A DNA stretch of 62,618 nucleotides, filler included, from Mustelus asterias (Eukaryota), in the NCBI RefSeq assembly GCF_964213995.1. It is 4 parts of 4 records of this genome, joined end to end, with 100 filler letters (N's around TTAATTAATTAA, not from the genome) between each part and the next. Parts side by side here need not be neighbours in the genome. Positions count along the whole stretch, not along the records: positions 23,762 to 39,543 come from NW_027590452.1; 3 more parts are not named here. One strand, written 5' to 3'. Shown in pieces: positions 27,023 to 39,543 of this stretch; position 1 is the first letter of the stretch, and every line of letters begins with the position of its first letter. Below the pieces are notes generated by a model that saw only the letters and a program-made list of their open reading frames with translations, searched no databases and had not been told where the DNA came from. The position numbers and the translations under genes were made by a program.

Positions 27023-27154
27023 TCCAGCAACAACTACGCCCCAGCAATTAAGGATCGATTTACTGCGTCCAAAGACACTTCACGCAACATCTTCTCTTTG
27101 GAAATGACGAGGCTGAAGACCGAAGACACCGCCATCTATTACTGTGCAAGAGAC
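27023..27154 (+). pseudogene. IGHV: IgM heavy-chain VH segment, 5'-truncated (end of CDR2 plus FR3 only)
   Basis: Translates [44 protein letters not shown], a typical shark VH FR3 with YYCAR. It is followed directly by an RSS. No leader, FR1 Cys or WVRQ motif is found upstream. Confidence 0.95.
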
Positions 27155-27193
27155 CACAGCGAGAGGAACAAGGGATGGACCCGGACAAGAACA
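27155..27193 (+). promoter_or_regulatory. VH 23-RSS
   Basis: Heptamer CACAGCG 27155-27161, 23-nt spacer, nonamer ACAAGAACA 27185-27193. Confidence 0.93.
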
Positions 27194-27564
27194 GCTCGAG
27201 AGGGAATTCAGCAACTTCCATCATAACCTGAAGGTCAGTGCGTGTTTTAAATGTAGTATTAACGACAGTGACCAGAACCAAAACACAAAACGCTTCTGAC
27301 AAACCGAACTTAGTGAAAATTAAACATTAAACCAAGAAAACACACAGACATAATGGACTGAGCTTTTCACTCTGTTTATATTTACTGTTAACAGTTTCAG
27401 CAATTACACACCTGGATATAATGCTCGTTTTACTATTTCTGATACTTGGAGGAGGTGTTTCTAGATTGTGTTTTGTAAACTGCTGCATAAATTGTAAATT
27501 ACATCGAAATAATGGTCTATTTGAAGTACATACTGAGCGGCAGTACTGAACAGGGAGTGCGTGC

Positions 27565-27645
27565 AGTTTTTGTGCGAGTGTCTGTCACTGTGATACAGCA
27601 GTGGGGTCACAGTGCTGAGCACAGCGACATCCTCATACAAAAACC
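27565..27645 (+). other. IGHD: DH1 segment (27593-27607) with 5' 12-RSS and 3' 22-RSS
   Basis: AGTTTTTGT, 12 nt, CACTGTG, then ATACAGCAGTGGGGT, then CACAGTG, 22 nt, ACAAAAACC. All three frames are open (IQQWG / YSSG / TAVG). Confidence 0.95.
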
Positions 27646-27945
27646 TCATGGAAAGAGATGGCTCAAATTGGTAATCAGTACCACAGCAGGATTTTCAAAG
27701 TAAACGAGGCTTCAGTGAAATAATGTGTGGAAGTAATATTAGTTTGTGAAAAGGTATAAAAATCTTCCCGTAAAATCTATATTTACCGATATGCTAAATC
27801 TACACAGAGAGTTTAAAAGCATTCCGATCCCCTTTATAAATACAATGACCAGGACAAGCTGAAATATCTCACTCATTCGCTCGTGGATGAGGCAGAATCA
27901 GATTTTTGAGACAGCACTGAAATTAAACAGTTAGCAGTCAGACTC

Positions 27946-28014
27946 AGTATTTGTCATGCTGTGTCTCACTGTGATAACTGGGGTGGCACAGCAGTTACTG
28001 TCAATACAAAAACC
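27946..28014 (+). other. IGHD: DH2 segment (27974-27986) with 12-RSS on both sides
   Basis: AGTATTTGT, 12 nt, CACTGTG, then ATAACTGGGGTGG, then CACAGCA, 12 nt, ACAAAAACC. Confidence 0.95.
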
Positions 28015-28341
28015 CCTCAGCACTAATTGACCGAGACTGGGGCAGTGCTCTGTTTTCCAATCCAGCATTATTTACAGTGCTGTATTATTTATGTTCCAGC
28101 CCTACACAAATAGCGAGAATTAATATGGAAAATTTATGATAACTATTTAATTATCAGTTGGTGTTTTCAATAACTTGATCATGTGATCCTCTATGAAATA
28201 TAAAACATTCAGGTTATTTATGTAGAGCGAACGGTATCCACCAGTACAATAATAATTTCATGAAAATGCAGTGATTTGCTTTCCCTCTGGCTTGTGAATT
28301 TTTAAAATACTGATGGATTTCTGTCTATTTTGTGCAGAGAT

Positions 28342-28380
28342 GGTTATTGTATGACCCAGCCTGGAGAATGTGACACTGTG
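28342..28380 (+). promoter_or_regulatory. JH 23-RSS
   Basis: Nonamer GGTTATTGT 28342-28350, 23-nt spacer, heptamer CACTGTG 28374-28380. Confidence 0.93.
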
Positions 28381-35999: not shown

Positions 36000-37545
36000 C
36001 CCACTGACTCTCTCACCCTGGCCCACACTTCCTCACTCACCCTCAATCTCTCATCCTCACTCAAAGAACTTCACTCCCTCACCCTCACTTACCCACCTTC
36101 CCTCGCTGACACACTCTCACTCATTCATCCCCACTCACAAATCCCAACTCACTCATCCCAACACACTCATCCCAACTCACTCATCCCAACTCACTCACCC
36201 TTGCTCACTCATCCACCCTCACACACTCAATTTCACACACTCAACTTCACACACTCAACCTCACGCACTCAATCTCATGCACTCAACCTCAGAAACTCAC
36301 TGATCCTCATTCACCCCGAGTCACTCACCCTCACACCCTCACTCACTCAAAATCACTCACACACATTCGCTCTCTCACTCTCACCCATCCTCACTCACTC
36401 ACCCTCATTCACTCACATTCACATCTTCATTCACTCACCAGCGCTCACTCACTCACACTCACTCGCCCTCACACACCCTCACTCACTCATCCTCATTCAC
36501 TCACTGTCACTCAGTCACCCACACTCACACGCTATCACTCACTCAACCTCAGTCACTAACCCTCAGTCACTCACTCAGAGCCTCAGTCACTCACCAACAC
36601 TCATAGTCACCTTCGTTCACTCAGCCCACTTCCCCACCCTCACTTATCTAGTCTCACTCACTCTCACTCACCCTCACTCACCCCACTTACCCACCTTCAC
36701 TCATCCAGTCTCAATCACTCACACTCACTCACCGCCCTTACCCTCCCTCACTCATCCCGTCTCACTCACTCTCACTCACCCTCACTCACTCTCCCCACTT
36801 ACCCACCCTCACTCACCCAGACTCACCCCCACACACTCAAGCTCAGTTACCCTCTCTCTCTCACGTACGCCACCTGACCCATTTAAACTCACTGAGACTC
36901 ACGCACCTACATTCACTCACACACCCTCACATATTCACCATCACTCAAGTTCACCCACCCTAACTCACAGATCTTCAATCACTCATCCTCAGTCAAACAC
37001 CTTCACTCACTCACCCTCACTCATCCACCCATCCGTATTCATTCTCCCTCACACACTCTCACACACCACCCTCAATAACACACCCTGACTCACTCACTCT
37101 CTCACCCTCACTTACTAAGTCACACTCACTCCTCACCCTCATTCACTCACTCTCACTCATCCACCTTCACTAACCTTCACGCATCCTCACTCACTCACCC
37201 TCATTCATTCTCTCTTACCGACACTCACTCACCCACCTTCACTCACACATTCAGCCACCTTCACTCACCCACCCTCTCTCACACACCCTCATTTACTCAC
37301 GCTCTCTCACCCTCACCCACACTTACTCACTCACCCTCAATCACTCATCCTCACTGAAAGAACTTCACTCACTCACCCTCACTTACCCACCTTCCGTCAC
37401 TCACACACCATCACTCATCCACTCTCACTCCTTCACTCACTCACCCTCACTTACCCACCTTCCGTCACTCACACACCATCACTCATCCACTCTCACTCCT
37501 TCAATCACTCACCCTCACGCACTCACATTCTCTCACTCACACTCG
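36000..37545. repeat. Degenerate (CACT)n tract
   Basis: CTCACTCACCCTCA units, with a ~66-nt exact internal duplication near 37365-37500. Confidence 0.9.
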
Positions 37546-37679
37546 CTAAACCTGTGTGTGGAGGTCTGCAGCGAGAGAGAAGAAAGATCTCAAGCGGCAG
37601 TTTGGTGTTCAAATGTGGGAGCTGCCCTGCGAATGTGGAGAGCTGGTGGGAATCCCTGGGGGCTCAGGGCCAAGGACAA

Positions 37680-38282
37680 TGGCAAAGAGCCGGGGAGAAC
37701 AGGAGGCGTGCTAAAGGGCAGAGAGCCGGGGGGGGGGGGGGGGGGGGGAGAGAGAGAGGGCAGAGAGCCTGGGGAAAGGGACCACAGCCGGGCAACAGGG
37801 CAGAGAGCCGGGGGAAAGAGTAGAGAGTCAGGAGAAAGGGCAGAGAGCCAATAGAAAGGGCAGGGAGCCAGGTGAAAGGGCAGAGAACCAGGAGAAAGGG
37901 CAGAGAGACCAGGGAAAGAGGAGAGAGCCAGGATAAAGGGCAGGGAGGCCGGGGAAAGGACAGAGAGCCGAGGAAAAGGGCAAGCGAGCCCAGAGGAAAG
38001 GGCAGAGAGTCAGGGGGAAAGGCAGAGAGTCAAGGGGAAAGGGCAGACAGCCAGGGGAAAGGGCAAAGAGGATAGGGAGCAGGGACACCGGGCAGAGAGT
38101 CGGGGGAAAGGCTAGGGAGCTGAGGGAAAGGGCAGATAGCAGGGGGAGAGGGCCCAGAGCTGGAAGGAAGTGTAGCGAGCCAGGTGGAAGTGCGGAGAGC
38201 CGGGTGAAAGGGGAAAAGAGCCACAGGGAATGGCAGAGAGCCAGGGGAAAGGGCAGAGAGCCGGGGAAAATGGGCAGAGAGT
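37680..38282 (+). repeat. Purine/G-rich ~20-bp minisatellite
   Basis: Unit approximates GGGGAAAGGGCAGAGAGCCA, repeated over ~600 bp. Confidence 0.9.
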
Positions 38283-38606
38283 GGGTGATCGACGGGCGGA
38301 GTGAGGAGGTGCAAAATAGAGCTAGCACCACAATCAGATCATCTGTAATCTCAATGAATGATGGAGGAGACTTCAGGGCCCGAATGGCCAACTCTTGCTC
38401 TGAATGTATGATTCTTCAATTAGTCAATGTTGCATTTATTTGAATTTGTAATCACATTTAGAGCTTCCTGGTCATTCAGTAAGTATTCATTCCGGAGATA
38501 TTTTTGAAGCAAAGTCACTAATATTCGTTTTGTGGAGTGAGAGGCAGTGAGTTGGAGAGAGGAAGGGGTATATGTCAGTTTGAACACAGCCAATTTCCAA
38601 AACTAC

Positions 38607-38725
38607 AATGTGGAGATGCCGGCGTTAGGTTGGGATGGGCACAGTAAGGAGTCTGACAACACCAGGTTAAAGTCCAACATGTTTATTTGGAATTGCGAGC
38701 TTTTGGAGCTCCTTCATCAGGTGAG
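38607..38725 (-). mobile_element. Penelope-like terminal fragment with degenerate hammerhead
   Basis: Minus strand CACCTGATGAAGGAGCTCCAAAAGCTCGC, followed by the same downstream block as the 41.8 kb copy. Confidence 0.65.
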
Positions 38726-39257
38726 TGGATGATATGAATGAAGAGACAACTTCTTCATCACAAAGTGCTGTTGTTTGAGAAATAAAGAGAGGTTGCAATA
38801 ATGGAGAAAATCTTTGCTCTTCTCTGTTAATCCAATGAATGATTTGTCATTTTGAGGACAGCAGAATGTTTTTTCTTTCTAATCTGATAGAGGTGGAGAC
38901 AGGGATATGAGTTTCTACAGAGATGACGGATCTCAGATGATAGAAATAACAGAATCACAAAGGTGGATGTACGTTTTGATCGGGAAATATTAGGATTAGT
39001 TCATAATTCTAGTCAAAGTTTGAGATAGAAACATAGAAAATAAAGCAGGAGTAGACCATTCGGCCCTTTGAGCCTGCTCCGCCATTCACTTTGGTCAGAG
39101 CTCATCAATATCCTGATCACACCTACTACCCATATCCCTTGATCCCTTTAGCCCCAAGAGCTTTATCTAACATAGAAACATAATTGTAAAAACATGTTTG
39201 ATGACTTAATAAACGCAAGTAAGAGTCTAACTTGTTCAATCGACTATTCTTTCCCAG

Positions 39258-39543
39258 CGACACCGTCTCAGCCCACTCTCTACAGCCTGGTCTCCTCCTG
39301 TCAGCAACGCAACCCCGACGGCTCCATCACCTACGGCTGTTTGGCGATGGACTACTCTCCGGATGTCACCAAACTGACCTGGAAGAAAAATGGGCAGCCG
39401 CTCACCAATGGGTTTAAGACTTACCCGTCAGTGAGAAACACGAAGGGAACCTACACCCTGAGCAGCCAGTTAACTATCACCGACTCAGAATGCCCCAAAA
39501 TTCACTGTGAGGTTCAACACAGCGGCTCAGTCAAGAGCATTGG
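39258..39543 (+). CDS. IGHM: IgM constant region CH1 exon (3' end lost in assembly gap)
   Basis: Acceptor TTCTTTCCCAG at 39247-39257, in phase with the J donor. Translates [44 protein letters not shown]...[36 protein letters not shown], an Ig C1-set domain like shark Cmu1, with no stops. Confidence 0.93.

Follow-up and report, generated by a model that had tools for sequence, protein, structure and literature searches.

Shark immunoglobulin M (IgM) heavy chains are encoded in miniloci consisting of one variable (VH), two diversity (D) and one joining (JH) segment at ~400 bp spacing, followed by Cmu, with 15–200 copies per genome and pseudogene copies among them (PMC2435157, PMC5192425). The four segments of an intact minilocus are joined by RAG without a set order, and splicing links the resulting VDDJ exon to Cmu (PMC2435157). 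Here, we analyzed a locus of this kind from Mustelus asterias (assembly GCF_964213995.1), located at positions 27023–39543 of a 62,618-nt stretch of DNA (the window, in which all positions are counted). The original prediction, made from the sequence by itself, described it as a cluster-type V-D-D-J-Cmu locus with a full set of recombination signal sequences (RSSs).

The closest described systems are the nurse shark IgM miniloci G1–G5 and the pseudogene groups 6–8 (Malecek et al. 2008, PMC2435157), which have the same VH-D-D-JH-Cmu layout, and IgM pseudogene clusters are known in the nurse shark from both PMC2435157 and PMC5192425. The bamboo shark has 37 IgM clusters, and three of its seven IgNAR clusters are incomplete (PMC8692893). 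IgW-type shark heavy chains follow the same cluster principle with RSS-flanked segments (PMC5192425), and a further set of shark heavy-chain (IgH) clusters is joined in the germline as VD-J, VDD-J or VDJ (PMC5192425, and PMC2193156, which covers such joining); these are also non-canonical and often non-functional. Promoters appear to be associated with V segments only (PMC5192425), the IgH clusters are located near TCR (T-cell receptor) alpha/delta (PMC12227049), and a V can be expressed together with a C belonging to another cluster, without switch regions (PMC4279169, a review).

Compared with the nurse shark miniloci, the VH of the window locus lacks everything from the leader to the second complementarity-determining region (CDR2), and the intron between J and the first constant exon (CH1) measures 10.8 kb as against 6.3–6.8 kb, with ~4 kb of simple-sequence arrays plus interspersed repeats within it. 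Compared with the germline-joined clusters, the copy is fully unjoined, and its lesion is a 5' loss with no heptamer visible at the breakpoint. The locus is most likely an IgM minilocus (VH-D1-D2-JH-Cmu) in unrearranged layout that has been truncated at its 5' end and is probably a pseudogene.

Results and discussion

Probable truncation of the VH segment

All that remains of VH is its 3' end (Table 1), which covers positions 56–91 of the 109 positions of the Pfam V-set domain and is identical to a Mustelus VH at 41 of 42 residues. A tblastn search with 13 shark immunoglobulin (Ig) proteins against the whole window gave no V alignment upstream of 27023 and no C alignment outside CH1, and a profile built on the leader-to-CDR2 part of seven shark VHs, searched in each of the six frames of the whole window, reached a best E-value of 0.54. 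The leader, the first framework region (FR1), CDR1, FR2 and most of CDR2 were found nowhere in the window; along with the leader, ~55 residues at the start of the mature domain are missing from VH. The leader with a complete VH (both cysteines and the FR2 tryptophan) that marks a functional IgM gene is not present. The V segment of the original prediction therefore stands as to its 3' part and its RSS but not as a whole VH, and the locus is not complete in that its V is missing the leader and ~55 N-terminal residues and the C region beyond CH1 is outside the view. Upstream of the remnant, an ATG at 26960 would add 21 in-frame non-Ig codons; there is no sign that it is used, and a protein started there would be unable to adopt the V-domain fold.

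The breakpoint falls at a single base, 27022. Contigs aligning to 26700–28500 came from four of the 20 runs listed (the shark DNA runs X1, X2, X5 and X7); of the 20, three contain at least half of the search words and none is on record as RNA, which carries no weight as to expression. Being contigs, their depth is not a copy number, no listed piece covers the whole stretch, and all figures given for the runs refer to what was listed, beyond which a further 182 variant places, 104 loose ends and 699 pieces exist. Contigs matching the remnant diverge exactly at 27022 in X1, X2 and X5 and then translate as ordinary FR2/CDR2. From the other side, contigs of the upstream block depart at the same base into unrelated sequence in X1 and X2, and one X5 piece matching the block likewise ends its match there. 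The pattern is that of a junction left by a deletion or rearrangement. The Triakis scyllium IgM BAJ20180.1 and the Mustelus asterias model XP_078062221.1 both continue 5' into normal FR2/CDR2, unlike the window copy, and also keep two CH1 residues that are absent here. A RAG-made breakpoint was considered and rejected, because the 30 and 19 letters listed for the two lost sides contain no visible heptamer.

The nature of the upstream block bears on the type of lesion. No second copy of 26802–27022 occurs elsewhere in the window, and in each run the depth of the block is of the same order as that of the V-D-J spacers, which hints that a repeated cluster unit normally has this block as its upstream flank; the lesion would then be an internal deletion. 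Further upstream, the sequence between the first placeholder gap (the block starts at 23762) and the breakpoint is 3.2 kb of gap-free, non-Ig DNA, so that this gap does not explain the missing V. The stretch comprises pieces of short and long interspersed elements (SINEs/LINEs) to 26144, a CpG-rich patch at ~26200–26700 and the window-unique block to 27022, and is a mosaic of repeats instead of a single element flanked by VH on both sides.

That mosaic speaks against a VH split by a large insertion or inversion with its 5' half beyond the gap at 23662–23761, an explanation that we regard as very improbable. It draws on the fact that the gap is a fixed 100-bp placeholder whatever the true size, so that 1–23661 is not necessarily the true neighbour; the 3.2 kb from gap to breakpoint are several repeats and not one mobile element, and no 5' VH was found in 1–23661 either, of which 1–17999 was covered by the whole-window searches (RSS scan, tblastn, profiles and part of the Pfam search). 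Such a split would differ from the truncation preferred here in the type of lesion only, the gene being dead in either case. A degenerate GIY-YIG/Penelope origin of the upstream block, suggested by a short motif, was dropped; Pfam returned V-set only. Four CCAAT-type boxes lie within 85 bp (26934–27017) just 5' of the breakpoint.

A different account places the fault in the assembly: the IgM gene would be functional and intact in the genome, with a misjoin or a chimeric read producing the junction at 27022 and perhaps also the J–CH1 link over the 142-N gap. We consider this unlikely, and it is the account toward which the evidence that counts against a truncated pseudogene points. Among the listed contigs none bridges 27022, which leaves the junction without independent read support; the V remnant, J and CH1 contain no stop or frameshift, and all six RSSs are intact, none having lost its CAC; and the assembly is fragmented (three 100-bp placeholder gaps plus the 142-N gap) in a region of multi-copy Ig clusters, which are prone to misassembly. 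The run test of the junction is also weak in both directions, with many pieces and loose ends beyond those listed. Against a misjoin, the junction is base-sharp and lies in gap-free sequence with the nearest gap 3.2 kb off, and its 1-nt overlap would be too short for mistaken joining by an overlap-based assembler. Moreover, at five of the 40 variant places listed (27083, 27290, 27554, 27560 and 28363), all aligned contigs from the four runs carry the other letter, so none of these runs holds an exact copy of the locus; the missing bridge is therefore to be expected either way and decides nothing. The copy has private changes of its own, namely these five fixed bases, the one at 27083 replacing serine by arginine in FR3, and a two-codon deletion in CH1.

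Segment layout and recombination signals

Downstream of the truncation, the locus has the organization of a shark minilocus. Both strands of the whole window were scanned for RSSs with CAC obligatory, at most three mismatches to the RSS consensus, and spacers of 11–13 or 22–24 bp. Nine matches were obtained, six of which fall within 27155–28380 in the order V(23), (12)D1(22), (12)D2(12), (23)J, with three scattered over the other 59.8 kb. Among 2000 dinucleotide-preserving shuffles, none reached six matches in the 1.35 kb of 27101–28450 (mean 0.055, maximum 2). Successive coding ends are separated by 438, 366 and 394 bp, V, D1, D2 and J all lie on the same strand, and the three adjacent pairs obey the 12/23 rule (23/12, 22/12 and 12/23). 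The locus accordingly fits the elasmobranch IgM minilocus, in which a single VH, a pair of D segments and a single JH share an orientation within ~2 kb at a spacing of 250–500 bp (PMC5192425), and all segments are separate with their own RSSs, so it is not a germline-joined V-D-J fusion of the IgM1gj type. The six signals, together with D1, D2, J and CH1 (Table 1), are genuine. The 22-bp spacer at D1 is standard for shark IgM. For bamboo shark IgNAR, the 22-bp class is shown in PMC8692893.

In these respects the original prediction was accurate: the signal set is present at the places given, scoring within three mismatches and far above the shuffles, the spacing of ~370–440 bp and the 12/23 compatibility were recovered by measurement, and the known VH-D1-D2-JH-Cmu organization of cartilaginous fishes is borne out by the layout, the RSSs and an IgM CH1.

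Table 1. Positions of the elements of the IgM locus and of the assembly gaps in the window
Feature	Position	Strand	Description
Placeholder gaps	23662–23761, 39544–39643, 51644–51743		identical 100 bp: 44 N, 12-base AT spacer, 44 N
Non-VH block joined to V remnant	26802–27022		other copies differ after 27022 (X2 record 9, X5 record 17)
Breakpoint base	27022	+	common to upstream block and VH; 1-nt overlap
VH 3' remnant	27023–27154	+	CDR2 end, FR3, YYCAR; 44 codons, frame open
V RSS	27155–27193	+	23-bp spacer; weakest of the six (one heptamer and two nonamer mismatches)
D1 5' RSS	27565–27592	-	12-bp spacer
D1	27593–27607	+	15 nt, all three frames open
D1 3' RSS	27608–27645	+	22-bp spacer; heptamer and nonamer perfect
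D2 5' RSS	27946–27973	-	12-bp spacer
D2	27974–27986	+	13 nt; one frame of the three has a stop
D2 3' RSS	27987–28014	+	12-bp spacer
J RSS	28342–28380	-	23-bp spacer
JH	28381–28428	+	translation AMGYWGQGTMVTVTA; WGQGT motif; phase-1 GT donor at 28429
J-CH1 intron	28429–39257	+	10,829 bp; 142-N gap at 34871–35012; old duplications, CA/TCAC-rich arrays, G-rich 20-mer array
Cmu CH1 exon	39258–39543	+	frame open; two-codon in-frame deletion; 3' end lost in N gap at 39544

Related copies in the runs bear on the segment boundaries. Joints at, or no more than 12 nt from, the predicted coding ends were seen for V-D1-D2 (X2, X5), D1-D2 (X1), D1-D2-J (X2) and V-J (X7); these are five of the joints listed, the others being located elsewhere in the spacers. 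As related copies join at these ends, the called segment boundaries are the ones that RAG uses in this cluster family. The joined copies span 27149–28393 in DNA-type runs, some at a depth of 15–25, and are possibly germline-joined clusters.

In an intact cluster, V(23) is paired by RAG with D1(12), D1(22) with D2(12) and D2(12) with J(23). Every such joining deletes ~400 bp, and splicing connects the VDDJ exon to CH1. For the copy in the window, we propose that the leader and the 5' part of VH were removed by an inherited event, a deletion or a rearrangement, whose breakpoint lies at 27022. Its signals being intact, RAG could in principle still cut here. Judging from Ig domain structure, a copy deprived of the V promoter, the leader, the first cysteine and the N-terminal strands would yield no foldable, secreted heavy chain, and in its assembled form it can encode no antibody heavy chain, having neither the promoter region nor the leader nor the N-terminal half of V. 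The lesion is probably young on an evolutionary scale, as the frames of the remnant, D, J and CH1 and the six signals have stayed intact.

Constant region and isotype

J would join CH1 in frame by a phase-1 GT/AG splice over the 10,829-bp intron, which includes the 142-N gap. The original prediction of a J donor in phase with an uninterrupted CH1 10.8 kb downstream proved correct for phase, open frame and distance but not for the completeness of CH1, which stops short because of the placeholder gap at 39544–39643, losing its last codons and its donor. The internal gap also ends one base later than had been given (34871–35012, not 34871–35011). The exon encodes a C1-set domain according to Pfam and, in an alignment, lacks two residues that are kept in eight shark IgM-type CH1s sharing an extra cysteine there. 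A CH2-to-tail profile (five segments), run over six frames of the whole window, gave only a cross-match to CH1. As a result, Cmu is represented by CH1, with no CH2–CH4, secretory tail or transmembrane exon in the window, where CH1 is followed by a placeholder gap standing for any true size; this gap may hide CH2–CH4.

The CH1 exon shares 85% identity with Triakis scyllium IgM (BAJ20180.1), 82% with the Mustelus asterias model XP_078062221.1, 71–72% with nurse shark IgM CH1 and 60% with nurse shark IgM1gj. Identity is only 25–28% to the first C domains of two shark heavy chains that we read as IgW because their C regions are long, although the sources do not label them so. A tree of 21 CH1 rows placed the IgW-type domains on a branch of their own (100/99), apart from the window CH1, and supported the IgM-type branch at 86/81; most IgM branches were unresolved, and the isotype call therefore rests mainly on identity. 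By sequence comparison the CH1 is IgM and not IgW, and the isotype named in the original prediction is supported by the comparison with nurse shark IgM and with IgW-type chains. Searches of the PDB matched mammalian-type antibodies only, among the 60 rows listed. A 132-residue protein labelled Salmonella enterica, from a contig of 480 bp, shares 78% identity with the window CH1; a bacterial assembly has probably been contaminated by shark DNA in this case. No shark Ig DNA came up in two scans of metagenome contigs.

Could a cluster that has lost its V still be of use? Given that V and C of different clusters can be expressed together (PMC4279169), the locus might act as a C-region donor for AID-linked switching between clusters, or as a transcribed RAG substrate driven from the CpG-rich patch. 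We see little chance of either, and slightly less that the truncated cluster is a dedicated constant-region donor for inter-cluster switching, held open by a captured CpG-island promoter. Continued use would be in keeping with the intact J, splice sites and CH1 frame, with the CpG-rich patch and its motifs, and with the in-frame ATG; recent loss explains the intact frames equally well, and CH2–CH4 are not in view. Tetrapods keep S-mu at the equivalent position upstream of CH1. In the window this position, ~1 kb 5' of CH1, holds a G-rich 20-mer array (37752–38281; G skew 0.52), whose reading as a switch region was rejected: the array is AGCT-poor, with two AGCT in 530 bp, its WGCW density is 7.5 per kb compared with 16–22 per kb in the flanks, and AGCT occurs at 2.6 per kb in the J-CH1 intron compared with 3.2–3.6 in the flanks.

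The CpG-rich patch, 0.35–0.75 kb upstream of the remnant, has an observed/expected ratio of ~0.8, a GC content of 64–69% and a 33-bp triple repeat. It contains YY1-like (26373, 26406) and NRF1-like (26340, 26521) motifs, all short, and a minus-strand donor-like site near 26338. The patch resembles a promoter with the first exon of a gene running leftward, an orientation that, like the shortness of the motifs, argues against its driving the V-less cluster. The 5'-truncated, probable pseudogene remains the reading that we prefer.

Within the J-CH1 intron, three duplications (28787–29198, 29419–29832 and 30423–30649) are mutually 70–74% identical, and 30648–30908 is 78% identical to 31955–32214. 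Octamer motifs occur at 29801 and 32636.

Other features of the window

The IgM locus block lies between the first two placeholder gaps, and neighbours across such gaps may lie at any distance from each other. Beyond the second gap, a C2H2 zinc-finger exon (45708–46780, minus strand) encodes approximately ten 28-residue fingers by Pfam, with an 84-bp tandem period; because a placeholder gap intervenes, it need not be a true neighbour of the IgM cluster. A Pfam search of 100 further open reading frames, among the 180 listed of at least 80 residues, gave a zinc-finger match only. GC-rich patches at 42080–42200 and 51060–51370, with NRF1-like motifs at 42158 and 51065, are possibly promoters of zinc-finger genes. 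A 69-bp satellite in nine copies (56006–56638) is followed by a ~4.8-kb array of GT/GA-rich 20–22-mers (56640–61445).

Conclusions

The organization of the locus is textbook, and the copy in the window probably adds one IgM pseudogene to those known. Among the titles listed in a literature search, none dealt with a 5'-truncated shark IgM VH, within a scope that excluded the primary papers on shark IgM pseudogenes and switching. As most likely read, the finding matters little, as sharks have tens of IgM clusters, pseudogenes included. It does carry a warning for annotation: a cluster with every RSS in place and its frames open is not thereby functional, and cluster counts based on D-J-C or RSS matches would overcount. 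The two-codon CH1 deletion and the private FR3 and J bases provide markers with which RNA-seq data can be asked whether the C region of a V-less cluster is used by another VDJ, and such use would bear on the choice of partners in the unusual switching of sharks. If the truncated cluster were a constant-region donor after all, it would offer a natural intermediate between clusters and the tetrapod arrangement, in which several C regions share one VDJ.

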